From IMG/VR virus record IMGVR_UViG_3300045988_180981, positions 1 to 37,188 of that record: a DNA stretch of 37,188 nt; one strand, written 5' to 3'. Origin of the DNA: a virus. The notes below the pieces were generated by a model. That model ran no database searches and was not told where the DNA came from. It was given only the letters and a program-made list of their open reading frames with translations. Both the position numbers and the translations under genes were made by a program. This document shows positions 2,381-37,188 of this stretch, in pieces (position 1 is the first letter of the stretch; each line of letters opens with the position of its first letter).

Positions 2381-2399
2381 CCGTATGCACGAAAAAAGC

Positions 2400-2640
2400 C
2401 GTCAAACCAACGGGTTCAACGGCTAATCCAACGGTCAACGGTGACGGCCAACGGTGGTTTCAACGGCAACGGCAACGGTGACGGCCAACGGTGACGGCTA
2501 ACGGTGACGGCCAACGGCAACCGCTAACGGTAACGGCCAACGGCTACAGCAAACGGGTGGGGTAAACGGGAACGGCCAACGGTGGTTTTCTTTCCTCGTA
2601 CGGATAAAAGCAACGGCACGACCTAACGGTGACAACAACG
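2400..2640. repeat. Iteron-like array: about 20 copies of the pentamer AACGG, including four tandem 13-bp units AACGGTGACGGCC
   Basis: Counted by eye at 6-13-nt spacing. The distal part overlaps the 3' end of the rusA ORF. Confidence 0.7.
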
Positions 2641-3062
2641 GAGGGTGTCAAATCGTAGTGCTTCGCCATGCAAACATTAACCACTTGGGAATCGTCAACA
2701 AAGGCAATCCCATTCAATCCATCCAAAACGGCTTTCAAAACGTTGTCCAAGTCGGGCTTCTTCGTGGGCAATTCCTCACCGCTCAACTTCGCCAAGCCAT
2801 GCTTGTTCGGTTGCCCCTTCGAGTTGTAATCCGCCTTCTTCAAGCCGAACCACGCCATGACTTCCACCGCGATAGGCCCTGTGAGTGGCTTCGCCTCGGG
2901 GTACTTCTCCTTGAACTCATGGGCGAACCTCGCTTCGTAAGAGAGCGTTTTCGATGGGGTGTAAATGTGCGTGTGCCCCCCGAAGGAGGTTGCCCTAGGC
3001 CTTTGCTTTCCCATCGGCTCTCCCAAAACGTTAATCGTGTACTTAAATTCTTCTTCTGCCAT
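2544..3062 (-). CDS. rusA: RusA-family Holliday junction resolvase
   Basis: GKQRPR near the N-terminus and KPDLDNVLKAVLDGLNGIAFVDDSQV, which are RusA hallmarks. GAGGAG 10 nt upstream of the ATG at 3062. The C-terminus runs into the AACGG repeats, so the 3' extent is uncertain. Confidence 0.75.
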   Translation of the reverse strand: MAEEEFKYTINVLGEPMGKQRPRATSFGGHTHIYTPSKTLSYEARFAHEFKEKYPEAKPLTGPIAVEVMAWFGLKKADYNSKGQPNKHGLAKLSGEELPTKKPDLDNVLKAVLDGLNGIAFVDDSQVVNVCMAKHYDLTPSVVVTVRSCRCFYPYEERKPPLAVPVYPTRLL

Positions 3063-3076
3063 ATCTTCAAAACTCC

Positions 3077-3367
3077 TCAATAGCATTTATAACGCATTAT
3101 GTGGTTTTTATTCTCGTCCAAACCCTTCGATTCAAACCTTTCGAGCAATGTTGATTCTTTGATATTTCCTCGTGAGGTGTTTCGCACATCTTCGACTTTC
3201 AACAACTCAATGATTCCTTTGAACCCAGTGCTCATTTCCTGCTCGCACGTCTTGACGAAGCATAGGCTGGCGCCATCGCGGTCTTGCTCCTCATACTCGG
3301 TTACTTTGGTGAAGTCCGCGTATTCGGAAGTTGAGCGCACTATGTAATAAGGTACTTTCATTTCCAT
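3077..3367 (-). CDS. Hypothetical protein (~96 aa)
   Basis: AAGGAG 9 nt upstream of ATGGAAATG; start taken at the internal Met of track ORF 3077-3391. Confidence 0.55.
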   Translation of the reverse strand: MEMKVPYYIVRSTSEYADFTKVTEYEEQDRDGASLCFVKTCEQEMSTGFKGIIELLKVEDVRNTSRGNIKESTLLERFESKGLDENKNHIMRYKCY

Positions 3368-3486
3368 TTTGTTTATCTCCTTTTTAGACAATTAGAGGGC
3401 TTTCTTTCAATCAATCGAACAATTTGCCATGGGAAGCGACAATTCGCCTCCATGAGCCTAGAAATGGCTTTTAATGGCATTGTGGG

Positions 3487-3945
3487 CTATTCCTTCCGCT
3501 CATTGCGCATGAGTTCATCCCAAACTTCTTGGTCGAACGTGTCGATGGACTTCACCGCCTTGGTTAGATTCCCATTGCGGATGTCGCCAATAGCACCGCT
3601 TTCCATCAATTCCCTCAAAGTCATTTTCGATGGCTTGTTGAAGATGAAGATAGGGCAATCTTTGTTGCACGCTATTCCCATGACGAACTCGCCCACGTTG
3701 CAAATCCCGATGTTGTGGCTACCCATGTTGTCATGGCCGATATTTCCATCGCCAACGTTGTAATCGCCAACGTTGTTCGATCCATAGTTGCCATTGCCTT
3801 TGTTTTGGCTTCCGTGGTTGCAATCGCCATGGTTGCAATCCCCAACGTTGAAGTCTCCCTCGTTCCAAGAGCCGTGGTTGCAATTGCCTCGGTTCTCAAC
3901 GCCCTTGTTGAGAGCGCCTAAGTTGTTGTCTCTAGTCTTGCTCAT
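3487..3945 (-). CDS. Pentapeptide-type beta-solenoid repeat protein: 17 consecutive N-x-G-x-x pentads; candidate DNA-mimic (Qnr/MfpA-like) protein
   Basis: Gly at residues 10,15,...,90 and Asn at 8,13,...,83 without a break. The 15-nt periodicity is also visible in the DNA. Start overlaps the upstream stop (ATGA at 3942-3945). Confidence 0.7.
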   Translation of the reverse strand: MSKTRDNNLGALNKGVENRGNCNHGSWNEGDFNVGDCNHGDCNHGSQNKGNGNYGSNNVGDYNVGDGNIGHDNMGSHNIGICNVGEFVMGIACNKDCPIFIFNKPSKMTLRELMESGAIGDIRNGNLTKAVKSIDTFDQEVWDELMRNERKE

Positions 3946-4427
3946 GCTTTTGAATCCTCCTCAATCGCTTTTTTCTCGCTCATCATTTTCTGGATTCTCC
4001 TCAATAAATCGGGGTGGGTGACAATCACCTCGTCAAAGTCTTCCGCTTCCGCTATCGCGAAGAAGATAGTCCTTGAGCTCAATTGCCTTCCCCATTCTCC
4101 TTCTTTCGGCAAATCCTCGAAATCGACACCTTCCCATTGTGTTGGGTCAAAATCAATGATGGCATGGGTTTTCAAGGTAACTGCTTCGATTGTCCTATCT
4201 TCGTTTCCTCTTTCGTCCGTAGATACGAAAACTTCAGCAATTTTAGTGGAATATGCCCTCATCAAAACGCTTCCATTATTCGCTTTCATGTTTCCCTTAA
4301 CCGTTTCCGCAATGTTGGATTCCGCCTCTTTTGCGAGTTCAAGGGATTCATATTCCCCTTCGAAGAAAGGCTTTTTCGCTCGGCTAATCATATCGCAAGC
4401 GGTCAATACGTATTTGTACATTTTCAA
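3942..4427 (-). CDS. Hypothetical acidic protein (161 aa)
   Basis: Minus-strand ORF, translationally coupled to the pentapeptide-repeat gene. Confidence 0.55.
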   Translation of the reverse strand: MKMYKYVLTACDMISRAKKPFFEGEYESLELAKEAESNIAETVKGNMKANNGSVLMRAYSTKIAEVFVSTDERGNEDRTIEAVTLKTHAIIDFDPTQWEGVDFEDLPKEGEWGRQLSSRTIFFAIAEAEDFDEVIVTHPDLLRRIQKMMSEKKAIEEDSKA

Positions 4428-4432
4428 TTCTC

Positions 4433-4693
4433 CTATAAAGTTTCCTTTTTAGTCCACTTTCTCATTCGGTATCCATTTTGGCAAAGTGTAATGCTCTTCA
4501 ATTCACTTTTTGGGCATAATGCCGACTTTTCAATCAACGAAAGAGCCATATTGTGGATTCCTTCGTAATCATAATCCTCAATCACTACTCTTTTTTCTCC
4601 TTTAAAATCGAGAACTAATGAAAAATATTCCATTTTGTGCAATGCGTCCTCTGCGTCACACGTGCTACTAACTTCCCATAAATCTTCTTTCAC
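4433..4693 (-). CDS. Hypothetical protein (~87 aa); start set at the GTG preceded by AGGAG. An alternative ATG lies at 4720.
   Basis: Track ORF 4433-4774 read in frame. The AGGAG overlaps the stop of the upstream acidic ORF. Confidence 0.45.
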   Translation of the reverse strand: MKEDLWEVSSTCDAEDALHKMEYFSLVLDFKGEKRVVIEDYDYEGIHNMALSLIEKSALCPKSELKSITLCQNGYRMRKWTKKETL

Positions 4694-4704
4694 TTTCAAT
4701 TCTC

Positions 4705-4869
4705 CTATTCGTCTTCCCATAGTTTCGAGTCTCGCCACTCTTCGTATTTGGCATCCTCGTATGGATCTTCCCAATCCTCAAGTTGCGTTCCAAAATCTTC
4801 TTCGTCTTCGTCTTCTTCGTCTAGCAATTCTTCGTCTTCGTCCAACAATTCTTCATCTTTCTTCGGCAT
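4705..4869 (-). CDS. Unannotated 54-aa hyper-acidic protein MPKKDEELLDEDEELLDEEDEDEEDFGTQLEDWEDPYEDAKYEEWRDSKLWEDE; candidate DNA-mimic anti-defence protein
   Basis: Translated by hand from the minus strand. AAGGAGG 8 nt before the ATG at 4869, TAG stop at 4705-4707. Absent from the ORF track because it is under 60 aa. Confidence 0.6.
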   Translation of the reverse strand: MPKKDEELLDEDEELLDEEDEDEEDFGTQLEDWEDPYEDAKYEEWRDSKLWEDE

Positions 4870-4892
4870 TTTCTTGCCTCCTTTTCGATACC

Positions 4893-4917
4893 ATTATAAT
4901 AAGCCCTTAGAGCAAGT
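4893..4917 (-). promoter_or_regulatory. Promoter-like element CTAAGGGCTTATTATAAT: a TATAAT -10 hexamer preceded by the conserved AGGGCT motif; -35 is weak
   Basis: Lies between the methyltransferase stop and the acidic ORF's SD. Confidence 0.4.
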
Positions 4918-4933
4918 GCATCTAATGGATTTT

Positions 4934-6379
4934 TCACAACAATTCTTTGAATATGTCCATCAGCACGTCCACAACGATGGAATCACCGGCGCAATGGTAT
5001 ATGGCAGAATCGCTCATCCCGATGGCGCGCATGGCTTGCTCGTCCTTGTCATTGAACCCCATGAGCCTCATGCATTCCAATGGGGTGAGTTTGCGAAGCT
5101 TCCCTTCGGATTGCGTGACAATGTCGATGGTTGTTTTAATCGTCTGGCTCATTCCGCTTTGCACGGTTCCGCGGTGGTATTGCATTCTCGTTCCACAATC
5201 GATTCCATCCCCTTCCTCGGCTTCTAGGTAACCCTTCTTGGTTGCGTTGCGGACGAGGATCTTCCCCATGAAGAACGGGGAAGTTGTGACACACGTGGAC
5301 AATCCGCCATCGCTGTAAACGCGATTGCCGAGCGATGGCTGCTTTCCATTCACCTTGGGGTTCAGGCATTCGGTGACAACCGTCCACCCAGAATCGAAAG
5401 AACCTTTGGCTTTTAATGTCCTTGCAACTCCCTTCTTCCCCGATTCTATGGAATTTTCGAAATCGCCTTTTCGGTCGAACCCCTTGGAATCTCCATAAAG
5501 CATGGTCTCAATAATTCTTGGGGATAGATTGTATTTTTGATCGGGGTTTTCCTCCAAAAGGTCGCGAAGCCTCTTGACGAGTTTCCTCTTCTTCGGGAAG
5601 TGGTATCCATATTCACCGAGAATGGAGACCATGAACACGCGGAGGCGGTTTTGGGGGATTCCATGGTCTTTGGCATTCACCTTCGCCCAATAGGAAGAAT
5701 ACCCAAGTTCCTCCAAGCGGTCTAGCCACTCGTTCCAAGGCTTGAGGTTTCTATCTCCGCAAACTCCGGGGACGTTCTCCATCAAGAGCACATCTGGCCT
5801 CTGCCCTGCTTCCTTAAGCTCACCGAGAAGCCTTTCGACCTCCCAAAGCAATCCCGACCTTGTGCCGCTACCCTTTTCCATGCCGGCCAATTTCCCCGCT
5901 TGGGAAAGGTCTTGGCATGGAAATGAATAAGTGAGAACGTAGCAATGCTGCCTATCTCCCTCCTTCTCGATGGATAAGCCGCTAGGGTGAATCTCCGAAA
6001 CGTTGGGGCAAAAGTCATTGCACGCGTCCATTGCTCCGCAAAGTTCCTCCAAAGCTTTTCTCCCCAATTTTTCCCTTTCTTCTTCCGATAGTGGGGAATT
6101 GTAATCCTTGGAAACACCGCAAGTTCTTTTTAAAAGTTCTTCCATTGGCGCTTCTTCCCACTTGCCTTTCTCGCACCTCCAGCCATTGTGGATTGCTGCG
6201 TAAGATCTAATGGAGGGAATTGCCCACTCGCACAAGCGCCATCTTTCAAAATCGGCATTGATGTTTTCCAAAGCTTTCGCTTGCGAACCAATACCACCGA
6301 ATAATTCGATGAGGCGGATTGGCTTGTTGATTTTGTATTCTCTTCTGCTTTGGGCGAACAGATTCAATTGCTCGTTCAT
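4934..6379 (-). CDS. DNA (cytosine-5) methyltransferase (orphan MTase, ~481 aa)
   Basis: Motif I LFGGIGS, motif IV SFPCQDLSQAG, motif VI LLMENVPG, motif VIII QNRLRVF, a long variable (TRD) region, then motif IX LTPLECMRLMGF and motif X GDSIVVDVL. Start at MNEQ, with GGAG upstream. Confidence 0.9.
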   Translation of the reverse strand: MNEQLNLFAQSRREYKINKPIRLIELFGGIGSQAKALENINADFERWRLCEWAIPSIRSYAAIHNGWRCEKGKWEEAPMEELLKRTCGVSKDYNSPLSEEEREKLGRKALEELCGAMDACNDFCPNVSEIHPSGLSIEKEGDRQHCYVLTYSFPCQDLSQAGKLAGMEKGSGTRSGLLWEVERLLGELKEAGQRPDVLLMENVPGVCGDRNLKPWNEWLDRLEELGYSSYWAKVNAKDHGIPQNRLRVFMVSILGEYGYHFPKKRKLVKRLRDLLEENPDQKYNLSPRIIETMLYGDSKGFDRKGDFENSIESGKKGVARTLKAKGSFDSGWTVVTECLNPKVNGKQPSLGNRVYSDGGLSTCVTTSPFFMGKILVRNATKKGYLEAEEGDGIDCGTRMQYHRGTVQSGMSQTIKTTIDIVTQSEGKLRKLTPLECMRLMGFNDKDEQAMRAIGMSDSAIYHCAGDSIVVDVLMDIFKELL

Positions 6380-6380
6380 T

Positions 6381-6659
6381 TTACTTGTCTCCAAAATCCC
6401 CGAAATATTCATCGACCCATGTTTTCAATCCCTTTATGATTTCGCGCTTTTTCCTAGCTATTTCCTCATAAGAGCCATTCCCTTTGTTTCCTTGAGGAAC
6501 ATAACTATATTCGGCAAGGCTTTCAATCATCATGTCAATCATGTTGCTAAGCAAATCCAAGTTCTTCACGCTCTCGGAATCATGGTTCGTTTCTCCCCAC
6601 CACGAAGTGTCGGGTATAAGCCTCTTTAAGGCCTCTAGAACAAATTCTTTGTCATTCAT
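6381..6659 (-). CDS. Hypothetical protein (92 aa)
   Basis: Minus-strand ORF packed against its neighbours. Confidence 0.5.
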   Translation of the reverse strand: MNDKEFVLEALKRLIPDTSWWGETNHDSESVKNLDLLSNMIDMMIESLAEYSYVPQGNKGNGSYEEIARKKREIIKGLKTWVDEYFGDFGDK

Positions 6660-6672
6660 TTCCTTTCCTCCT

Positions 6673-7302
6673 TTAAATAAGTCCTACTAATATCATTACG
6701 AAGAATGCAAGGGAAACGGGGCATTCTATCAACGCGATTATCCCGATGATGGAGTTAGGCCTTGGACCTAAGTCAGCGCTTAGGAGAAGTATTCCGCTTG
6801 CCATTGCACATATCCACGTATTGCCAAGTGCCAGAGACGAATCGTGTGTCAATACCGCGGTGACTATTAGCGCAGGGCTTACCAAGAACGTGATGGCGTA
6901 GAGCACCGCGCAAAACACGAAGAACTCCCTTTGCTCCGAATCATCAATGCTCTCCATGAGCACCTTCTTCCTCGCTTCTTGCACTTCCGATAATGTCATG
7001 GTTTTCCAATGGTGCTTCTTCTTCCAACGTTCCAAATAGGGGCGGTAGTCGATCCATGATGGGTAAAACACGTACAATCCCTCGAAAGCGTTCTCAGTAA
7101 TGAGGATGGCTTTGTATACTTGCCACCCACCTCCGCTCAATGGGCACTTGATGTATATCCCCTCTTCCTCTTGGTTCGGGAATACCTTGCACCCATCAAC
7201 GTTCAATCCGAATGCTTTTACGTAATCATCTCTGGTGCGAAGGATTCTTTTGCTTCTCAATATGCGGACTTCCTCACCGAACCTGTTCATTCTCTCTTCC
7301 AT
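6673..7302 (-). CDS. Membrane-anchored hypothetical protein (209 aa): soluble N-terminal domain and about 3 C-terminal TM helices
   Basis: C-terminal hydrophobic stretches; no motif recognised. Confidence 0.5.
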   Translation of the reverse strand: MEERMNRFGEEVRILRSKRILRTRDDYVKAFGLNVDGCKVFPNQEEEGIYIKCPLSGGGWQVYKAILITENAFEGLYVFYPSWIDYRPYLERWKKKHHWKTMTLSEVQEARKKVLMESIDDSEQREFFVFCAVLYAITFLVSPALIVTAVLTHDSSLALGNTWICAMASGILLLSADLGPRPNSIIGIIALIECPVSLAFFVMILVGLI

Positions 7303-8746: not shown

Positions 8747-8774
8747 ATTATACTAGCCCCTAGAACGATTGCAA
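8747..8774 (-). promoter_or_regulatory. Sigma-70/sigma-A-like promoter P1: TTGCAA-16 nt-TATAAT, spacer contains CTAGGGGCTAG
   Basis: Read from the reverse complement of 8747-8774. Confidence 0.65.
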
Positions 8775-8783
8775 TAGCATTTT

Positions 8784-8813
8784 GAAAAAATAAAAAAGAG
8801 GGCCGAAGCCCCC
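8784..8813 (-). terminator. Rho-independent terminator
   Basis: Minus strand GGGGGC-UUCG-GCCCUC hairpin followed by UUUUUUAUUUUUU. Confidence 0.6.
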
Positions 8814-9028: not shown

Positions 9029-9505
9029 CTATTCCTTCTTAGATTCTCCAATCACTCTAGGTTTAATAAATTCTCCGTAATCCTCCTCCTTCTTTGTTTG
9101 CTCTTTTTCTTTTTCATTCTCTTCTCCCATTTCGGTTAAGATTTTAATGCACATTTTTATGTATGCACGGATGTTCATGTAGTCCGTATCAAGGAACATA
9201 TAATGAGCACTTTTCATTCTTTTGTACTCGTGCTCATCATAAAACCTTTCGTCAATTTCTTCCCATTCCTCTTTTCGGTGGTTTTTGCTTGCTACGGCTT
9301 GGCTCAATAGCCTTACCAATTCTCGCAAATCCTTCAAATCGGATTCATTCTTTTTCATCATGTTGTGTCGCTCGATTCCCTTCTTGTCGATATGCACCTC
9401 ATACTTCTCAACTTTATCTCCATCGTAGTTATAAACCAAAATAGGCCTTATCCGCTTGGGATACTTTAGGCTTGGCATTAAAGAATATTTTCTTTCAAAT
9501 TTCAT
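9029..9505 (-). CDS. Hypothetical protein (158 aa)
   Basis: Minus-strand ORF, coupled to its neighbours. Confidence 0.5.
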   Translation of the reverse strand: MKFERKYSLMPSLKYPKRIRPILVYNYDGDKVEKYEVHIDKKGIERHNMMKKNESDLKDLRELVRLLSQAVASKNHRKEEWEEIDERFYDEHEYKRMKSAHYMFLDTDYMNIRAYIKMCIKILTEMGEENEKEKEQTKKEEDYGEFIKPRVIGESKKE

Positions 9506-10422: not shown

Positions 10423-10905
10423 TTAGAATGGCAAATCATCTTCCGACAATTCCTCAATGGCTTGCGAGCGCATATTCGGAATGGTTCTCTCTTGCGGTTT
10501 CGTTGGCGCTCTGGATACAAATTGCGCGGTCTCGATGGCTGGCGCGTAAGAGAGCGGTTGTTGTTCTTGCGGTTGCGGTTTGGCCTCGCCTTTTGGTTGC
10601 GCATGGCATAGGCACTCGACCCTATCCGCGTAGACCTTCACGCCCAATCGCTTCGAGCCGTCTTTTCCTTGGTATGGGTGAACCGACAAGCGACCGTCAA
10701 CGAGAATCAAGTCTCCCGTTTTTAGATACTTAATGCAATAGTCTCCCGTAGTGCCCATGGCGGTGCAATCGAGAAACATCGTCTCCTCCGCACCGTCTTT
10801 CGTCTTGTAGGATTGAGCGACCGTGAAAGCCACCCATCTATTTTGGTTTCCTGCCATTTCTGGCGCTTTGGTCAATCGACCTTCGTAGATAACTTTGTTA
10901 TACAT
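10423..10905 (-). CDS. ssb: Single-stranded DNA-binding protein
   Basis: N-terminal NKVIYEGRLTKAPEM OB-fold start, Gln/Pro-rich linker and the acidic C-terminal tip DDLPF. Confidence 0.85.
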   Translation of the reverse strand: MYNKVIYEGRLTKAPEMAGNQNRWVAFTVAQSYKTKDGAEETMFLDCTAMGTTGDYCIKYLKTGDLILVDGRLSVHPYQGKDGSKRLGVKVYADRVECLCHAQPKGEAKPQPQEQQPLSYAPAIETAQFVSRAPTKPQERTIPNMRSQAIEELSEDDLPF

Positions 10906-10988: not shown

Positions 10989-11813
10989 CTAAAAGGGCAT
11001 TTCGTCCTCCGTGACGAATTTGTTCGGCTGCTCGGCAGGTTTAGTCTCTGCTGGCTTTTGCACCTCGTAGGAAGCCTCGTACAATCCTTGTTGAGTGGGT
11101 TGCGGTTGATAGGACTTCTTAATCCCTTGCAATAGCATGATAGCCTTTTGAGCGTTCTCGAAGGTGTCGATGGGATTGTATTTGTATTTATCCACGAAGT
11201 CATTCAAGTTAAGCCCCCTCTCGCTCAATAGGCGGTTGATGAACGCCACTTGCTTGTCGGTTGCTTTCCCGTAAGTGTGGGAAGCAGGTCTAACCGCATA
11301 CCCTGCGTTGGCGGTGTACGGGTTCGGCTCTTTAGCTTCGGCTTCCTCAAACTTCGTTCCCTTGGGGGCTTCTAGTTTGCCCTCGTAGATATACAAGCCA
11401 ACTCCGAAGCGAGCCACGCATTTGGTTAGACCGCGCTGGATGGAATCGTTGATGTCTCTTCCATCGATTTTGTCCATTGGCATGGAATCGTTTCTATTGT
11501 CCATGATGGGGAAGGTTTCAACGCGCTCGACACCGAGAGCCGACACCGCGCATTTCACGAACCCAAACCCATTCACGTTCCACACGGGGTTGCCTAACGC
11601 GTCCTCGATAATGCGGAAGTTCGCGTCCGGGTAGATCTCGAGCATTGCCCTCCAAGCGACCGCCCAATTCAAGTAGGCTAGTTGGACGGTGACCGTTTTA
11701 CCGCTTTTCGTGTTGTATTTGATTTCCTTCCAATCGATGTCTTCTTTCGAAGCCCTCCAAGCACTTGCCTTGGCGAACTTATCGGCCAATAAATCCAAAT
11801 ATTCTTTATCCAT
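10989..11813 (-). CDS. Rad52/Sak-like single-strand annealing protein with an SSB-like acidic C-terminal tip (DEMPF)
   Basis: VQLAYLNWAVAWRAML resembles the LxWA.AW motif of phage Sak (DUF1071) proteins. Placed between a DUF1351-like gene and ssb. Confidence 0.55.
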   Translation of the reverse strand: MDKEYLDLLADKFAKASAWRASKEDIDWKEIKYNTKSGKTVTVQLAYLNWAVAWRAMLEIYPDANFRIIEDALGNPVWNVNGFGFVKCAVSALGVERVETFPIMDNRNDSMPMDKIDGRDINDSIQRGLTKCVARFGVGLYIYEGKLEAPKGTKFEEAEAKEPNPYTANAGYAVRPASHTYGKATDKQVAFINRLLSERGLNLNDFVDKYKYNPIDTFENAQKAIMLLQGIKKSYQPQPTQQGLYEASYEVQKPAETKPAEQPNKFVTEDEMPF

Positions 11814-12454: not shown

Positions 12455-12901
12455 CTAGTTGCAAGGGCTATTTTCCAAGTTTTCCACAAAGGAATCCACA
12501 AAGCGCTTGGCGAGCAATTCGCCCTCTTCGGCATTGTCCGCCATAATCCCTTGCCCGTCCTTGCGGATTTTCTTCGTAATGCAAGATACCTTCACCAAGG
12601 CTTTCATGGCTTTGTCTTTGAGGGTCTTGCGGTAGGCTAGCGTTTCCTCCAAGTTGCCCATGTGGTAGGTGAAGTTGTCGATGATTATTACTTTGTCCGC
12701 TCCCCAATCGCAATTGATGGCGGTTACATCGCTCCAGATTTGAAAGCATTTGTCATGCACCTTTGGGTTGTCGGAGTAATTGTAACCGTCCGAATAGGTC
12801 GCTTTCTGGTAGTTCGACACGATTTCCTCTTGGGTGGTGACTTTGCCTTGAAGAGAGTTTTTCAAGATGAGGTTGTAGGTCGCTAATTGTCTATTTGTCA
12901 T
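12455..12901 (-). CDS. Hypothetical protein (148 aa)
   Basis: Minus-strand ORF. Confidence 0.5.
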   Translation of the reverse strand: MTNRQLATYNLILKNSLQGKVTTQEEIVSNYQKATYSDGYNYSDNPKVHDKCFQIWSDVTAINCDWGADKVIIIDNFTYHMGNLEETLAYRKTLKDKAMKALVKVSCITKKIRKDGQGIMADNAEEGELLAKRFVDSFVENLENSPCN

Positions 12902-13448
12902 TTTCGTTCACCATTATCTTTTCGCCATCGGGCGTTTTCACCCAAATGGGCTTATCGTCTTTCAACATCACAATGTATTTCTCAACTGGCGGATAATATG
13001 GCATTGTTATCGGGAACATCTTGTTCACCAATCTCGAACCAACCGAGGAAATGAATGGTATTTTCTTGGGGTCTTCTTCGTCATAGCAAACAACCCTATC
13101 GACATCGTTGTAAGTCACTTTCCCATCAAGTGTTTCCCTTCTGAAAACGGAACACATCCTATTGCAAGAAAGATCGGATTTGAGACCCTGTTCTTTTAGG
13201 TAGCGTGGGTCTTCTTGCGTTATCCCCTCTTGGTCTAAAAAGTCTTCATCGACAATCGGGGTGAGGGGTAAGTCATTCAACAATCTCGTGAGAAGATGAG
13301 TAGTAATATTCCAACTAAATCCGCTATGGCTGTCTTTTGCCATCGACATAAACGCTCTTAAGGCGCTATCCGCACACATTTGTCCGTAAATGTCTTGTTT
13401 TTTCTTAAAGAGTTCGACTTCTCTTTTCGCTTCTTCGCTCATTGTCAT
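12891..13448 (-). CDS. Hypothetical protein (185 aa)
   Basis: AAAGGAG 8 nt upstream of ATGACAATG. Confidence 0.55.
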   Translation of the reverse strand: MTMSEEAKREVELFKKKQDIYGQMCADSALRAFMSMAKDSHSGFSWNITTHLLTRLLNDLPLTPIVDEDFLDQEGITQEDPRYLKEQGLKSDLSCNRMCSVFRRETLDGKVTYNDVDRVVCYDEEDPKKIPFISSVGSRLVNKMFPITMPYYPPVEKYIVMLKDDKPIWVKTPDGEKIMVNENDK

Positions 13449-13997: not shown

Positions 13998-14636
13998 TTA
14001 TCCTAAATAAACGTAGGATTGCGGAACTCCCTTCAATCCGTATTCCTCAATGCCGATCGGCTCGGGGAATCTCATTGGTTTGCTGAGAACGTATGCGTAT
14101 GCCACGTCCGCCCCGTTGAAGTACTCAATGTAATCTTCCAACGATATTCCCGAATGGTCTTTGGTTCTTTCATAAAGATTGTATGGCGAGTCTTTTATTA
14201 CTTTTAATACGTTTACTTCGCCAACAACCTTTTTCACTGGAGCAGTCTCGTAAATGACGATTTTGGACACATGGTGGTTCGGCAATTTCCTACGATATTC
14301 GAACCACTTCTTATCGTCTAGGATTTTCTCCGCATATTCAGGTTTGATTGGGAGGATGATTTTGCTTCCGCATTGTACTTGATTACGTTCCGAGGCTAAC
14401 AGCAAATCGCCCTTGTACTTTAAAAAGCACAACGAATACCGTTTTCCGTCCCGTTCATTGAACCTCTCGGTTTCAAAGAACTCCTCTGCCTCTTCGCGAT
14501 CGGTGAAATATCCAATCGTATATGGTAAGCGGTCTTCTTCTTTGATGAGTTCCACTTCGTAGTACGTTGGCAACATTTTGTTTTCGGAAATGCACTTATC
14601 GCAGTAATTCAATAATTCGAGTTTAGTCATTTTCAT
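13998..14636 (-). CDS. Hypothetical protein with a possible ASCH/PUA-like C-terminal domain (212 aa)
   Basis: The C-terminal half (KIILPIKPEYAEKILDDKKWFEYRR ... VAYAYVLSKP) has an ASCH-like pattern; this is a weak call. Confidence 0.3.
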   Translation of the reverse strand: MKMTKLELLNYCDKCISENKMLPTYYEVELIKEEDRLPYTIGYFTDREEAEEFFETERFNERDGKRYSLCFLKYKGDLLLASERNQVQCGSKIILPIKPEYAEKILDDKKWFEYRRKLPNHHVSKIVIYETAPVKKVVGEVNVLKVIKDSPYNLYERTKDHSGISLEDYIEYFNGADVAYAYVLSKPMRFPEPIGIEEYGLKGVPQSYVYLG

Positions 14637-14648
14637 TTTCTTTCTCCT

Positions 14649-15308
14649 TCAATCCTTTATATATTCGTAAGTTCCGGTCTCTTTGTTAAAGCGGAATTCG
14701 TTGGCATTTCCCCATAGTTTGAACGAGAGTTCGTAAGCCTCTTTTGAATCCGCAACGAATTGCTCAAAGGATACGCACGTTCCGTTTTTGTATTCGGCTC
14801 TTCCAGTGACACGTCCATTGTCTTCGTCCGCCCATTCATGCTCGAACGAGAAATCTTTGTGCATTTCCGCAAGTTTTTGAATAATGGGGGTAGGCGGTGT
14901 CCAAGCGGTGAGAAGCTCAATCGTGTCGCCATCGATTTTCGTTTCCCCTGCGTTCCATTTACATCCCCAATGATGAATACTCCAATCGAACCAAGTGGCG
15001 AATCCGTATTTTTGGAGATTCTCGAACGCGCGTTTTCCAAGTTTAATGGTGTCTTCCAAATTCCCTTCGTTTCTCTTTTTCAATTCTTCGACTTTGTGTT
15101 CATCAATTATCTTTTCTGGAGAGGTGATGGAAGCGATATATAACTTAAGCCCGTCTCTCGTTCTAGGGCCACATTCTATTCTCAAATCATCGGGCATTGT
15201 CTCAATGGTATTGAAGTCGAAGTCGCCATCGTTGTCGAGGTGCTTTTGGATTATTGATTTGGCGTTCTTTCCTTTTATGGTCAATCTATTTTTGATGAAA
15301 TTCGGCAT
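14649..15308 (-). CDS. Hypothetical protein (219 aa) with a conserved W.DW..HHWGCKWNA motif
   Basis: Motif seen; the family could not be named with confidence. Confidence 0.45.
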   Translation of the reverse strand: MPNFIKNRLTIKGKNAKSIIQKHLDNDGDFDFNTIETMPDDLRIECGPRTRDGLKLYIASITSPEKIIDEHKVEELKKRNEGNLEDTIKLGKRAFENLQKYGFATWFDWSIHHWGCKWNAGETKIDGDTIELLTAWTPPTPIIQKLAEMHKDFSFEHEWADEDNGRVTGRAEYKNGTCVSFEQFVADSKEAYELSFKLWGNANEFRFNKETGTYEYIKD

Positions 15309-19457: not shown

Positions 19458-19653
19458 TTTCCTTCTCCTCCTGCTCTTTCAAAAGAGCGTTGTATTCTTC
19501 CATCGTGATTTCCTCGAAGTCGCTCGGCTTCGAGAACTTCCCGATGAAGATTTCGTAGTCGGAGAGCAATTCCCCGTCCTTCGATTTGAGGGCATAGCCC
19601 TCTTTGGGGGCTAACCCCCTAGTCTTTTCGTTGTAAATCATGCCAATGTCCAT
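19432..19653 (-). CDS. Small hypothetical protein (73 aa)
   Basis: ORF in operon context; SD is weak. Confidence 0.35.
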   Translation of the reverse strand: MDIGMIYNEKTRGLAPKEGYALKSKDGELLSDYEIFIGKFSKPSDFEEITMEEYNALLKEQEEKENADRHEIE

Positions 19654-20330
19654 CCTTTGTTCGTGGCTATAGCCTTGTCCTCGTCCGTGAGTTTGTCGAG
19701 GTTCGTAGAACCCATTTTTAGGGTTTTCGTTCCGCTCGTTTGTGCTTTGAGGTTGCCGATGATTTCGAGCAGAGCCTCACGGGTGAATTTGGTGGAATAG
19801 TGAATGTCGAGCTGCGCGTTGATGTTAACCATGTGGATTGCTTCTAGTTTTTTGCAAGAATTGAACATGGAATTCAGGTTCGTAACGTTCGATGCGTCGA
19901 ATCGCGGAACGGTTGTGAGGCTGGAGCAATAGTAGAACATACTATTCATGTTCTCCACTTTCGATGTATCGAACAATGGAACGGTGGTGAGGTTTGAGCA
20001 ACTATTGAACATGTAAGACATGTTCGTCACTTTCGATGTGTCGAACAAAGGTACGGTGGTGAGTTTGAAGCAATAATTGAACATGGAATTCATGTTCTCC
20101 ACTTTCGATGTATCGAACAATGGAACGGTGGTGAGGTTTGAGCAATTAATGAACATGGAACTCATGTCCGTCACATTAGCGGTATCGTCATACTTCCAGC
20201 ACCCTTCAAATGAGGAGGCTAAACTTTGCGCGCACTTACCCCCAGCCTCGAAGAAAGCCTTCATCGATGTGATTTGCTTCTCAACGGTGTTCGTCACCGC
20301 GACTTTTTTGCTTCCTAAGTACAATGCCAT
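19638..20330 (-). CDS. BspA/DUF285-type leucine-rich-repeat protein; five ~23-aa repeats (FDTSKVTNMSYMFNSCSNLTTVPL); receptor-binding accessory candidate
   Basis: Repeat consensus D.S.V.NM..MF..C..LTTVP; AGGAGGTG SD before the ATG at 20330. Confidence 0.7.
   Translation of the reverse strand: MALYLGSKKVAVTNTVEKQITSMKAFFEAGGKCAQSLASSFEGCWKYDDTANVTDMSSMFINCSNLTTVPLFDTSKVENMNSMFNYCFKLTTVPLFDTSKVTNMSYMFNSCSNLTTVPLFDTSKVENMNSMFYYCSSLTTVPRFDASNVTNLNSMFNSCKKLEAIHMVNINAQLDIHYSTKFTREALLEIIGNLKAQTSGTKTLKMGSTNLDKLTDEDKAIATNKGWTLA
19850..20160. repeat. About 4.5 tandem 69-bp nucleotide repeats (75-100% identical) encoding the LRR units
   Basis: The 55-nt stretch CATGTTCTCCACTTTCGATGTATCGAACAATGGAACGGTGGTGAGGTTTGAGCAA is identical at 19955-20009 and 20093-20147. 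Confidence 0.7.
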
Positions 20331-20332
20331 AA

Positions 20333-22225
20333 TCACCACCTCCTAATGGTAACGGAAGAACCGCTCTCGGGAATATCGCTCCACGATGGTGCTCCGTCCA
20401 CTACGGAGAGGAATTTTCCGTTTTGCGTAGAATCGGCTGCAAGCAAAAAACCAGTTGGCAAAGCAATTACCGAACCGCTTTTAGTTGTTCCTTCAATCAT
20501 AACAACATAACTTATAGCGCCTGAAAAAATGAATCCTGCGTACAATTTCGTCTCTGAGGCGAAAACGGTCATTAAAATTTTTCCAAGGTCTGGAATATTC
20601 AAAAAGAAAATCTCATCATTTGGCTCTGACCCAATGCTAAAGTCGGTTTGATTTCCACTAGTGCTTGTAATAGTAGCGTCAATCGTCTTGATTTTGCCTT
20701 CGTATTCCTTGTCCGCGTATGCCTTCGTGATGAGTTCGTAATTCAACACGTGAGCGATTTCGGGGTCTTCGCTCACTTGGGAAGAACGACCGTAAATCGC
20801 CCCATTATCTGCCCTGATGGGAATGGAATTTCCGATATTTTGAAGGCTCGCTTGGATGAACTTGTCAGCGTAAGACGATTCCGCGCCCCCTGCTTCGCAA
20901 GCGTAAACAAGGGTTTCGGGAGTAACCGAAAGCCCAGATTTCCTATTTAATTTCTCCGATTGAAGAGCGGTGATGTTGTCCGCGTTCCTCTTGCCCTTAT
21001 CGCCTGCGTAAGCGGTCTCGGAGGTTTCGCCCAACGCTAGGGAAGAGCCGATTTCAACGTAGACCGTTCCGCCCCAACGATAGGTTTTGTTCGTGTCCAA
21101 TGCGATGTAAATCTTGTTCACTTCGCCCGTGGTTGGGAAATCGTTGAAGGTTGGAAATTCCAAAACGTCCGACACGTAGGACGGAAGTTGGGAAGTGGGG
21201 ATTTTGCCGTCAAAGTCCAAGGAAGCGACACCCCTGCCTCCTCTTTGCCCAAGCAATCGCGAAGTGAGGAAAATTTCCCCTGATACTGGCATATAACTAT
21301 CGGCCACCCAACGTATTAGGTTGTTGTTGAGCGAAAGCCCGTCCAAAGTGAATACCGCGGAAGTAGCCATAGCCGAGGGACTTCTTCCATTGAACGTGAT
21401 TTTCGGAGAATTGATGAAGGAACGCAACGTTAAATTTGCAGGGCCAACATAGTTCCCCTCAAACTTGAATATCGGCTCGAATTGCTCAACTCCTGCGACT
21501 TCTTGCATTTGCTTAAGCGTTTCGGAATATAGCGTGAAATCAACGGGCGCTCCCTCACCTTTGGCATACCATGCGAAAGAGCCTTCGCCTTCCGCGTTTT
21601 TCTTTCTAAGGAACTTGTCCACCGCCAATCCATCGAGCGAAACCCCTTCGAGTTTGTCTCCGATTTTTTGGAAAACGGAACTCGTCTCGCTGTCCGCGGT
21701 TTCCTTCGCAAGAATCATTTGCCCCTCGGATAGGTTTGGCAAGTCCTCGGTCGCTTCCGCGAGCGTATCGTAGGAGCGCATATTCGAGCGAGCGTATTGG
21801 AGTTGGTAGTCCGCCATCATCGCCCGAAGAGCCTCGTATTGGTCTTGGGTGATGGGGTCTCCTCCCCTCCCCGTTGTCTCGTTTACGTATAGCGTTACGG
21901 GGTAGGTGAATAGCGTGGTCTTGTCCGAGTTGAAAACTTGGATGGAAAGAGCCACGTCTCCTTGGTATTCCGTAACCACCGCGGTTATGGTGATTCGGTA
22001 GCCCTCATAGACCCCCGTTGATGTCTTTATTTTGTTGGTGAAAGCTCCCGTTAGGGAAACAACTTCGTTGTTGGGCAATTTGAAGTTCCCGTCCGCGGTG
22101 TATTCGTCCACGCTTTTGCCAACAATGGAAACGTCAATGAAATTGACACCATCCGAATGTTGGTTTATGTAGTCCGTCAACTGGCTTTCGGAAACCGATC
22201 CGTCTTTATTGAAGATAATGTACAT
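20333..22225 (-). CDS. Tail fibre / receptor-binding protein candidate (630 aa)
   Basis: Beta-rich, Gly/Ser/Thr-rich; sits in the tail module directly upstream of the LRR protein. Confidence 0.4.
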   Translation of the reverse strand: MYIIFNKDGSVSESQLTDYINQHSDGVNFIDVSIVGKSVDEYTADGNFKLPNNEVVSLTGAFTNKIKTSTGVYEGYRITITAVVTEYQGDVALSIQVFNSDKTTLFTYPVTLYVNETTGRGGDPITQDQYEALRAMMADYQLQYARSNMRSYDTLAEATEDLPNLSEGQMILAKETADSETSSVFQKIGDKLEGVSLDGLAVDKFLRKKNAEGEGSFAWYAKGEGAPVDFTLYSETLKQMQEVAGVEQFEPIFKFEGNYVGPANLTLRSFINSPKITFNGRSPSAMATSAVFTLDGLSLNNNLIRWVADSYMPVSGEIFLTSRLLGQRGGRGVASLDFDGKIPTSQLPSYVSDVLEFPTFNDFPTTGEVNKIYIALDTNKTYRWGGTVYVEIGSSLALGETSETAYAGDKGKRNADNITALQSEKLNRKSGLSVTPETLVYACEAGGAESSYADKFIQASLQNIGNSIPIRADNGAIYGRSSQVSEDPEIAHVLNYELITKAYADKEYEGKIKTIDATITSTSGNQTDFSIGSEPNDEIFFLNIPDLGKILMTVFASETKLYAGFIFSGAISYVVMIEGTTKSGSVIALPTGFLLAADSTQNGKFLSVVDGAPSWSDIPESGSSVTIRRW

Positions 22226-37069: not shown

Positions 37070-37188
37070 CCAACATCGCACGCGCACACGGGCGATTTGG
37101 GATTTACGAAGTAAAGCCCATGAAAGTAATGCCACCGCGGAAAAAAGGGAAAAAAATTCGAAGGGGTTGGGTAGCCCCGAAAAAAAGG
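37070..37188. repeat. Right copy of the 119-bp direct terminal repeat. Either genuine terminal redundancy or overlap from a circular or circularly permuted assembly.
   Basis: Identical to 1-119. The window stops where the repeat stops, so the true repeat could be longer. Confidence 0.9.

Follow-up and report, generated by a model that had tools for sequence, protein, structure and literature searches.

The window, by which we mean the whole 37,188-nucleotide stretch analysed, is the ~37 kb genome of a siphophage-like human-gut phage. The locus studied here is encoded on the minus strand, in a transcription unit that probably starts, judging from its sequence signals, at the hairpin/promoter-like site at 8747..8813. 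In order of transcription, the features are:

8813-8798, minus strand: terminator-like hairpin upstream of the promoter-like site, within the feature 8747..8813
8774-8747, minus strand: promoter-like site TTGCAA-16-TATAAT, from the promoter scan
6673..7302, minus strand: 209-aa protein, hydrophobic in its C-terminal half; no family match
6381..6659, minus strand: 92-aa ORF found in this genome alone; relatives have nothing or an unrelated 98-aa ORF
4934..6379, minus strand: C5 cytosine DNA methyltransferase (MTase), 481 aa; Pfam DNA_methylase, PHROGs, PADLOC, M.MpeI alignment
4870..4933, minus strand: conserved MTase-peptide intergenic region; alignment, promoter scan
4705..4869, minus strand: 54-aa hyper-acidic microprotein; ORF with Shine-Dalgarno site, composition, homologues, synteny
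4694..4707, minus strand: 14-nt linker, copy 1; cassette boundary
4433..4693, minus strand: orf86, GTG start; unique to this genome, with a linker copy on each side
4422..4435, minus strand: 14-nt linker, copy 2; cassette boundary
3942..4421, minus strand: 159-aa acidic ORFan, start ATG 4421, pI 4.74, net charge -11
3487..3945, minus strand: Pentapeptide_2 repeat protein, 152 aa; Pfam PF01469, E=3e-19
3077..3367, minus strand: orf96; occupies the second small slot of variable content, after the repeat protein and before RusA
2544..3062, minus strand: RusA Holliday-junction resolvase; conserved downstream flank
2397..2424, minus strand: terminator-like hairpin, 12 bp stem plus T-run, closing the MTase-region transcription unit

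A first-pass annotation of this DNA had grouped the six genes between 3077 and 6379 as a probable anti-defence island, a description that we can confirm in part. All of the listed genes are real, lying on the minus strand with a Shine-Dalgarno site each, although the acidic protein given as 161 aa is, from its real start, 159 aa long. Less accurate were the size of an insert in the MTase, an internal promoter and the placement of the cluster downstream of the recombination genes: Sak and SSB do lie upstream, but more than 4 kb away with ~11 ORFs intervening, and RusA is located downstream, followed by two further ORFs.

The MTase scores 165.9 bits with Pfam PF00145 (curated cut-off 22; E=2e-48) and likewise matches phrog_116 (E=2.6e-56) and a PADLOC profile for orphan MTases that has the same length. 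Motifs I (FxGxG, residue 27), IV (PCQ with the catalytic Cys, 154), VI (ENV, 201), VIII (QxRxR, 243), IX (429) and X (465) are present in order and invariant among eight homologues. Among the eight, variation is greatest in the motif I-IV insert, whereas the target-recognition region is near-invariant, a pattern suggestive of selection on a functional enzyme. As initially described, the enzyme appears to be an orphan, with no recognisable partner endonuclease nearby: searching the 10 neighbouring ORFs against Pfam, PHROGs and PADLOC gave no hit to a restriction endonuclease or defence protein, although such searches register recognisable nucleases only.

The best solved relative is M.MpeI (E=4e-42), with residues 19-297 of our MTase aligning continuously to residues 9-286 of the chain, the long motif I-IV segment included. 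The spacing between these motifs is 127 aa as compared to 67 aa in SPR; the extra length noted previously is thus genuine, but amounts to ~60 rather than 100 aa. With M.MpeI and M.SssI (CpG-specific; PDB 4dkj, 8c56) the likeness extends over the catalytic domain and not over the recognition region: residues 297-418 (121 aa) have no counterpart in the ~41 aa of M.MpeI (286-327) between the aligned blocks. Since the M.MpeI recognition region is unaligned, CpG specificity cannot be inferred for the phage enzyme; the genome contrasts favour AGCT instead.

For the comparison of gene order we used 11 genomes, this one and 10 related contigs. The C5 MTase is found in 8/10 of the group contigs; it is missing in L071, and L074 carries a non-homologous phrog_757 MTase instead, although ~20 nt from the 3' end of the C5 MTase gene are retained in that contig. 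Two further contigs, L082 and L085, have an N6_N4 MTase in the slot that in this genome contains orf86 and the 159-aa protein. MTases of different families thus occur at the locus across relatives, and the position has therefore been repeatedly used for DNA-modification genes. The 209-aa protein is present in all relatives carrying the C5 MTase and missing wherever the MTase is missing.

We used the same relatives to look for the target site. When all 4-mers were compared, CCGG and AGCT separated MTase-carrying from MTase-lacking relatives best by far, with observed/expected ratios of 0.38 in carriers versus 0.01 in non-carriers for CCGG, and 0.34 versus 0.04 for AGCT; the next-best 4-mer has a log2 ratio of 0.99. 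This contrast is between related genomes and involves only two MTase-lacking lineages. Furthermore, the perfect co-occurrence of the 209-aa membrane protein with the MTase means that the contrast cannot separate the two. In aligned homologous segments of the window and L074 the AGCT result is 10/0/1, control motifs being symmetric. Even in carriers, AGCT remains rarer than expected (O/E about 0.3). Of independent lineages, the distant carrier L003 does not avoid AGCT at all (49 observed, 47 expected). L070, with an essentially identical recognition region, has eliminated CCGG (2 versus 46 expected) and tolerates AGCT (21 versus 60). Collectively, these differences in site avoidance among relatives point to AGCT as the best candidate target of the C5 MTase.

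The separation of carriers from non-carriers by two different sites could also be taken to mean that the MTase is multispecific, as the first-pass annotation had proposed, i.e. that it methylates at least two unrelated sites via tandem target-recognition domains as in the Bacillus phages SPR, phi3T and rho11s. Like the phage-borne C5 MTases of SPR and rho11s (K02124, X05242), ours has an enlarged variable region, 186 aa between motifs VIII and IX, close to the ~170 aa originally estimated and longer than the roughly 110 aa that we estimate, in part from the M.MpeI alignment coordinates, for M.HhaI and M.MpeI; three T[ILV]-type motifs can be seen in it by eye. The region does not, however, reach the length seen in SPR (220 aa) or rho11s (284 aa), and the identity to SPR is 26% with long gaps, which does not amount to close kinship with that group. 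A single segment, residues 340-385 (NPxxNG...VYxxxGLSxxxTT), resembles the SPR and rho11s domain core (z=6.4 and 5.3, respectively), whereas segments 300-340 and 385-429 show no significant similarity to these cores (p=0.19-0.78). We thus find one significant core, not two or more tandem domains of the SPR/phi3T type, and the motif I-IV insert is a trait of the subfamily, common to the monospecific M.MpeI. GGCC, CCGG, CCWGG and GCNGC, the sites methylated by the SPR and phi3T MTases, are strongly avoided in this genome, which argues against protection of such sites. The single SPR-like core and this avoidance therefore do not support multispecificity, and the CCGG elimination in L070 also speaks against it; we consider it very unlikely.

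The 54-aa peptide contains 29 D+E residues and has a net charge of -24 and a pI of 4.05, in agreement with its first description as acidic. Its homologues form 35 clusters, 44-61 aa in length, whose C-terminal half hardly varies; the C-terminal FGTQLEDWEDPYEDAKYEEWRDSKLWEDE is nearly invariant. Within the phage group, the peptide gene always follows an MTase gene. In the intergenic region between the two, CTAAGGGCTTA[T/A]TATAAT is invariant in seven genomes; no RNA structure is supported in 4870..4933. The internal promoter previously placed at 4893-4917 pairs TTGCTC with TATAAT over an 11-nt spacer, and the promoter scan makes no call there. An alternative pairing, TTAGAT (4925-4920), 18 nt and TATTAT (4901-4896), has a poor -35 in this genome, whereas relatives have TTGACT, the orthologous site of L079 reaching a scan score of 10 of 12.

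T7 Gp5.9 is a small acidic phage inhibitor peptide. The 54-aa peptide resembles both Gp5.9 and Igy of LUZ24 (PMC10886550) in that all are ~50 aa long, strongly acidic and encoded in the early phage region, a likeness by these traits. Phage peptides of ~50 aa are known to inhibit host enzymes that bind DNA, examples being Gip and Igy, the latter an acidic peptide and putative DNA mimic directed at gyrase (PMC10886550). One possibility, albeit a remote one, is that the 54-aa peptide acts as a DNA mimic neutralising methyl-dependent (type IV) restriction provoked by a self-methylating phage.

A slot separates the peptide gene from the repeat-protein gene. In this genome it contains orf86 and the 159-aa ORFan, whereas relatives have the N6/N4 MTase or different ORFans there. 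The gene junctions of the slot carry the 14-nt linker TAGGAGAATTGAAA, which comprises a stop codon, a ribosome-binding site (RBS) and a spacer; it occurs twice in the window against 0.04 copies expected and is found at slot gene junctions in nine further relative loci. The 159-aa ORFan has three close clusters and one remote relative among 1.8 billion representatives. It shares 92.5% nucleotide identity with its L003 counterpart, while the adjoining MTase shares only 77%, and a remote copy is found at a different position in L074; judging from these comparisons, it is a mobile cassette. That the 54-aa peptide is a new MTase-linked counter-defence factor and the linker a recombinase-free cassette-exchange site for gut phages is a combination that we consider a long shot.

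The repeat protein and RusA are kept in 9/9 contigs at 90-97% identity, the former being encoded just upstream of RusA in every relative, either adjacent to it or, as here, with one small variable ORF in between (orf96 is shared with three relatives, others having unrelated ORFs in its place). The two are, on this synteny, conserved backbone and not cargo. The pentapeptide-repeat assignment of 3487-3945 itself stands: the protein consists of ~16 NxGxx repeats and a C-terminal domain, and indels of 5 and 30 aa among its homologues, multiples of five, fit the five-residue repeat.

This bears on the view that all six genes form one counter-defence island with its own internal promoter, in which the acidic and pentapeptide proteins are nuclease-inhibiting DNA mimics. 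The extreme acidity of the 54-aa peptide, the precedent of Igy and Gip, the MTases in the slot of relatives and the 10-of-12 promoter-like site upstream of the peptide in relatives are in its favour, as is the fact that the canonical pentapeptide proteins Qnr and MfpA are DNA mimics (PMC10886550). The repeat protein shares tandem five-residue repeats with Qnr, MfpA and AlbG, but its repeats are NxGxx, it is encoded beside RusA and is neither plasmid- nor toxin-linked, and its beta-helix is putative. It matches PF01469 only and not the Qnr/MfpA type (PF00805, at least eight A[D/N]LXX repeats), has no sequence match in the PDB, solved pentapeptide proteins included, and its AlphaFold2 model failed (mean pLDDT 34.5). 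The four unknown ORFs (54, 86, 159 and 96 aa) have no Pfam or PHROG match, including to Ocr, ArdA, Acr and other anti-defence families, and their earlier nomination as anti-defence candidates by association is thus not borne out by homology. Nor does acidity discriminate: several early ORFs adjoining the cluster also have a pI of 4.3-4.8, which leaves only the 54-aa peptide as exceptional. With the pentapeptide protein being backbone and the promoter copy of this genome having a degraded -35 and no scan call, a six-gene island is decidedly unlikely.

What does stand of the island proposal is its upstream part. The C5 MTase, the 54-aa peptide and the slot are accessory and mosaic among relatives, and a variable hotspot between conserved flanks, the comparative pattern that had been predicted, is found for 6659-3946 and does not include the pentapeptide gene. 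One recognised anti-defence gene is present at the locus here, the C5 MTase, and two MTases are present in L082 and L085; as judged by homology, a recognised role in counter-defence is limited to the MTases. A real orphan MTase and a slot swapped between relatives make for a fairly ordinary anti-restriction hotspot with a backbone flank, a reading to which we assign a probability of about 0.6. The interval would be the accessory part of a second transcription unit, predicted to be delayed-early. The MTase, of the long-spacer M.MpeI/M.SssI-like subfamily and with AGCT as the best candidate target, most likely methylates the phage DNA and thereby protects it from cleavage by type II restriction enzymes of the host. 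The 54-aa microprotein would be a lineage-specific companion travelling with the MTase, short genes would be exchanged between relatives at the recurring stop/RBS linker in a true cassette slot, and the pentapeptide-repeat protein and RusA would constitute the downstream flank.

The same mosaicism could be accommodated with no defence link at all, if the locus were a generic accessory region in which the MTase is regulatory or serves packaging and the small ORFs are accessories of host takeover or replication. The nin region of phage lambda is such a mosaic block of small genes, located between the replication/recombination genes and the late genes and containing a RusA-type resolvase and sometimes MTases, and mosaic temperate phages exchange modules at short conserved boundary linkers. 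The mosaic block, the RusA-type resolvase and the short-boundary exchange are common to our locus, but there is no sequence relationship to nin, and here a 14-nt stop/RBS linker recurs inside a single slot. Consistent with a generic region, indels relative to the closest relative are seen across the whole early region, the RusA and Sak/SSB recombination genes share the operon, and no unknown ORF bears an anti-defence signature. Mosaicism also reaches beyond this interval in L002, a relative that departs from the window at ~7.3 kb, 12.9-13.4 kb and ~14.0-14.6 kb. Against a generic region are the three unrelated MTase families at the locus in different relatives, and the AGCT and CCGG tolerance tracking the presence of the MTase gene, as an anti-restriction function predicts. 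We regard this alternative as unlikely.

The anti-restriction hotspot has precedents in the orphan phage MTases used for anti-restriction and in the clustering of anti-defence genes in mobile elements (Pinilla-Redondo 2020, PMC7648647; Samuel 2024, PMC11541004), with which it shares the partnerless phage MTase, the variable locus between conserved flanks and the small neighbour genes without assigned function. It differs in that only MTases are recognisable, with no Acr, Aca, Ard or Ocr homologue, and in that its position is towards the end of the early operon and not entry-proximal. While orphan MTases in mosaic accessory regions of phages are already well known, AGCT provides a concrete testable target for an uncharacterised gut-phage MTase, and true cargo is separated from backbone in a locus open to over-reading as a six-gene island. 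The conserved 54-aa hyper-acidic protein and the handful of slot cassettes are sensible candidates for anti-defence screens.

We found no prophage copy of the phage in 185,579 species genomes. Finally, one gene alone is homologous to a dedicated anti-defence protein. It encodes a Tad3-like Thoeris inhibitor and is located at 12891-13448, 6.5 kb from the cluster, in the promoter-proximal part of the operon.

The gene inventory that the first-pass annotation gave for positions 3077-6379 (minus strand) is largely correct: all of its ORFs are real, and each has a Shine-Dalgarno site. The C5 cytosine methyltransferase (MTase; 4934-6379) is a 481-aa protein with its start codon at ATG 6379 (Pfam DNA_methylase, E=2e-48), and has motifs I, IV, VI, VIII, IX and X at residues 27, 154, 201, 243, 429 and 465. 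As its neighbours have no nuclease or defence match in Pfam, PHROGs or PADLOC, the label 'orphan' that it had been given is reasonable. The 54-aa acidic peptide (4705-4869), with 29 acidic residues and a net charge of -24, is a genuine microprotein; its family comprises 35 clusters of 44-61 aa, with a nearly invariant C-terminal half and an acidic N-terminal repeat of differing length. The protein described as '161-aa' and acidic is indeed acidic (pI 4.74), but is 159 aa long when read from ATG 4421 (3942-4421), and its acidity carries no special signal, being common to several other early ORFs. The pentapeptide repeat protein (3487-3945; Pentapeptide_2, E=3e-19) is likewise present, and consists of ~16 NxGxx units followed by a C-terminal domain of ~60 aa; its sole named-phage homologue is in C. 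difficile phage AR1086-1, where the neighbours are all hypothetical and so give no information on context. The gene was detected in hundreds of samples. The AlphaFold2 models of the pentapeptide and 159-aa proteins (pLDDT 34.5 and 55.4, respectively) were too poor for a fold search.

All genes are carried by the minus strand, and the following features define the transcription layout.

Transcription signals and reference genes
15563-15534, minus strand: perfect sigma-70 consensus (promoter scan), before the early genes
10989-11813, minus strand: Sak, early gene
10423-10905, minus strand: SSB, early gene
8813-8798, minus strand: terminator-like hairpin, preceding a promoter-like site
8774-8747, minus strand: promoter-like site, heading a series of thirteen ORFs
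2544-3062, minus strand: RusA, last of the thirteen ORFs
2424-2397, minus strand: strong terminator-like hairpin, after RusA

Beyond the last hairpin lie two ORFs, ~1.2 kb of non-coding DNA and the small terminase gene. The interval had been placed downstream of the recombination genes; instead, it sits inside the second transcription unit, upstream of RusA. Directly after the early promoter we found an ASCH-domain ORF and a DUF1281_C/Api92-like ORF (13998-14636 and 14649-15308, minus strand), the ASCH-domain ORF being absent from relative L002.

We clustered the proteins of the window together with those of ten related contigs (IMG/VR, ENA and Logan assemblies). The gene order in this group is:

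o8205 - [o7659] - [c6] - mem209 - [o6659 or c17] - C5 MTase - 54-aa peptide - {slot} - [c8] - pentapeptide protein - [o96, c15 or c18] - RusA - {variable tail} - terminase

Here, mem209 is a 209-aa ORF (6673-7302), o6659 a 92-aa ORF (6381-6659), o96 a 96-aa ORF (3077-3367), and the slot a variable gene position. The pentapeptide protein and RusA occur in 9/9 contigs covering the position, with identities of 90-97% and 87-96%, respectively, on par with SSB; both are backbone, not cargo. The MTase is found in 8/10 group contigs, with truncated copies in L083 and L084. L071 and L072 lack it, and L074 carries a phrog_757 MTase in its place, together with a ~20-nt remnant of the 3' end of the C5 MTase. 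The proposal of an anti-defence island, expected to appear among relatives as a variable hotspot between conserved flanks, is therefore partly supported: an MTase-anchored variable hotspot extends over ~6659-3946, but the pentapeptide protein, which had been counted as island cargo, is conserved and lies outside it. Anti-restriction loci of this MTase-anchored type are already known (PMC7648647, PMC11541004). As judged by genome comparison, mosaicism is not exclusive to the interval, since three more sites, lying further upstream, also differ between the window and its closest relative, L002, and this limits the hotspot argument. A 299-aa PAPS_reduct gene (PF01507) is present in L070 (4520-5419), L079 (1058-1957), L081 (2067-2966) and L083 (2698-3300) at the position taken in the window by the 158-aa orf9505 (9029-9505); it is another variable slot, and its occupant may be a DNA-modification gene.

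Content of the slot between the 54-aa peptide and the pentapeptide protein
Window: orf86 (4433-4693) and the 159-aa protein
L002 and L079: a 227-aa protein
L070: a 177-aa homologue and a 228-aa protein
L081: 105-aa and 111-aa proteins
L084: 145-aa and 111-aa proteins
L082 and L085: a 56-aa ORF and an N6_N4 MTase (PF01555)

Among the genomes compared, orf86 and o6659 occur in the window only. The 159-aa protein moves as a cassette, given that it shares 92.5% nucleotide identity with the distant phage L003, as compared to only 77% for the MTase of that phage. A 14-mer linker, TAGGAGAATTGAAA, made up of a stop codon, RBS and spacer, is present in the window in two copies (0.04 expected) that flank orf86, and is found again where slot genes meet at nine more loci in relatives. 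This distribution suggests that slot genes are exchanged by recombination at the 14-nt linker. One family of slot cassettes has a common N-terminal M[IV]TLKD[VI]ExxG[YF]EF motif (L071 1276-2201; L003 9480-9929 and 10659-11204; L084 7198-7635; L074 5639-5812). The 177-aa L070 protein has a C-terminal extension, GDCTADSFEFVYKI, with a match in the C-terminus of the 149-aa L003 protein, which points to recombination scars between cassettes.

The MTase had been suggested to be multispecific, in part on account of the insert between motifs I and IV. Among proteins of solved structure, the CpG enzyme M.MpeI is its closest relative (E=4e-42), and the alignment of the two runs unbroken over residues 19-297, spanning the long motif I-IV segment (127 aa vs 67 in SPR, an excess of ~60 aa instead of the ~100 aa that had been given); this segment is characteristic of the subfamily and does not indicate multispecificity. 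In close homologues, the I-IV insert is the most variable part and the recognition region is almost invariant. While M.MpeI has the catalytic part and the long I-IV segment in common with the MTase, its recognition domain differs and does not align, and so we rejected CpG as a specificity to be deduced from this match. The variable region, at 186 aa, is shorter than in SPR (220) and rho11s (284). Local alignment with shuffling controls detected one segment, 340-385 (NPKVNGKQPSLGNRVYSDGGLSTCVTT...), resembling the SPR/rho11s recognition core (z=6.4 and 5.3), and no such likeness in the flanking segments. With a single recognition-core segment, multispecificity is unsupported.

Short palindromes are strongly avoided across the window genome, with observed/expected (O/E) ratios of 0.05 for CCWGG (1 site vs 21 expected), 0.22 for CCGG, 0.31 for GCNGC, 0.45 for GGCC, 0.28 for AGCT, 0.31 for GATC, 0.11 for GGWCC and 0.13 for CCNGG; GCGC, CGCG and TCGA are not avoided. 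CCWGG, CCGG, GCNGC and GGCC are the sites protected by the SPR and phi3T enzymes. In the 13.5 kb of L071, which is without the C5 MTase, there is not one CCGG or GATC site. When all 4-mers were contrasted between relatives with and without the MTase, CCGG (O/E 0.38 vs 0.01) and AGCT (0.34 vs 0.04) stood far apart from every other 4-mer, and the asymmetry holds within aligned homologous segments. CCGG is a doubtful target, as L070, with the same recognition region, has 2 of 46 expected sites. Since L070 tolerates AGCT (21 of 60) and the distant MTase carrier L003 does not avoid it (49 observed, 47 expected), we consider AGCT, with moderate confidence, the best guess for the MTase target, in what is a small sample of genomes that are not independent.

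The 54-, 86-, 159- and 96-aa ORFs have no Pfam, PHROGs or PADLOC match, the MTase being the sole PADLOC match. Among 1.8 billion representatives, the 159-aa family comprises three close clusters and, at 31% identity, the only remote relative that an exhaustive HMMER search recovered. The counter-defence role proposed for such ORFs is argued for only by slot position, as the slot holds an MTase elsewhere. The 54-aa peptide follows an MTase in every group genome that has the peptide, which fits a functional link, and is also explained by simple adjacency to the recombination breakpoint. Inhibition of host DNA enzymes is known for some small, acidic peptides of phages (PMC10886550); the likeness is an analogy, not evidence. 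Outside the interval, a 185-aa ORF (12891-13448, minus strand) in the promoter-proximal early operon matches Pfam PF25185, 'Type I Thoeris inhibitor Tad3' (E=6.4e-15, 55.4 bits vs a cut-off of 27). Absent from L002 and the other relatives checked, this Tad3-like ORF is, by homology, the phage's only gene with a dedicated anti-defence match.

The internal promoter drawn at 4893-4917 (TTGCTC, 11 nt, TATAAT) does not hold in that form: a spacer of this length is too short, and the site is not called by the scan. The stretch between the MTase and peptide genes is nevertheless conserved: seven genomes have an invariant CTAAGGGCTTA[T/A]TATAAT. For L079, TTGACT-18-TATTAT is called (10 of 12), and in the window's copy of this site the -35 reads TTAGAT; the lineage may have an internal promoter, though a weak one in the window. 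RNA structure in this intergenic stretch was rejected (z=-1.77, no covariation).

An exact 119-nt direct repeat at the two ends (1-119 = 37070-37188) identifies the window as a circular assembly of ~37,069 bp. A 12-kb megablast query had no match among 50,697 phage records, an MTase scan of genome contigs for a prophage or host yielded distant MTases only, with neither found, and Rfam and tRNA scans gave no match; a human-gut metagenome scaffold from ENA is 100% identical across every part compared. Other repeats were also seen. A tandem array of ~12 copies of the 13-nt unit ACGGCCAACGGTG (2431-2584; hexamer CAACGG ~14 times) covers the RusA 3' end and the region ahead of the 2424-2397 terminator, and may be protein-binding or iteron-like. 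A 58-nt direct repeat (1649-1706 and 2035-2092, 83% identity) contains an RBS and a G+C-rich hairpin; its copies are located upstream of orf1644 and upstream of a start site within orf2149, whose true start is probably near 2029, because the relatives' calls are 107-130 aa. Finally, four tandem copies with a 72-nt period (19846-20205; 144-nt units, 66-100% identity) lie inside a 233-aa ORF (19638-20339) in the tail or lysis region.
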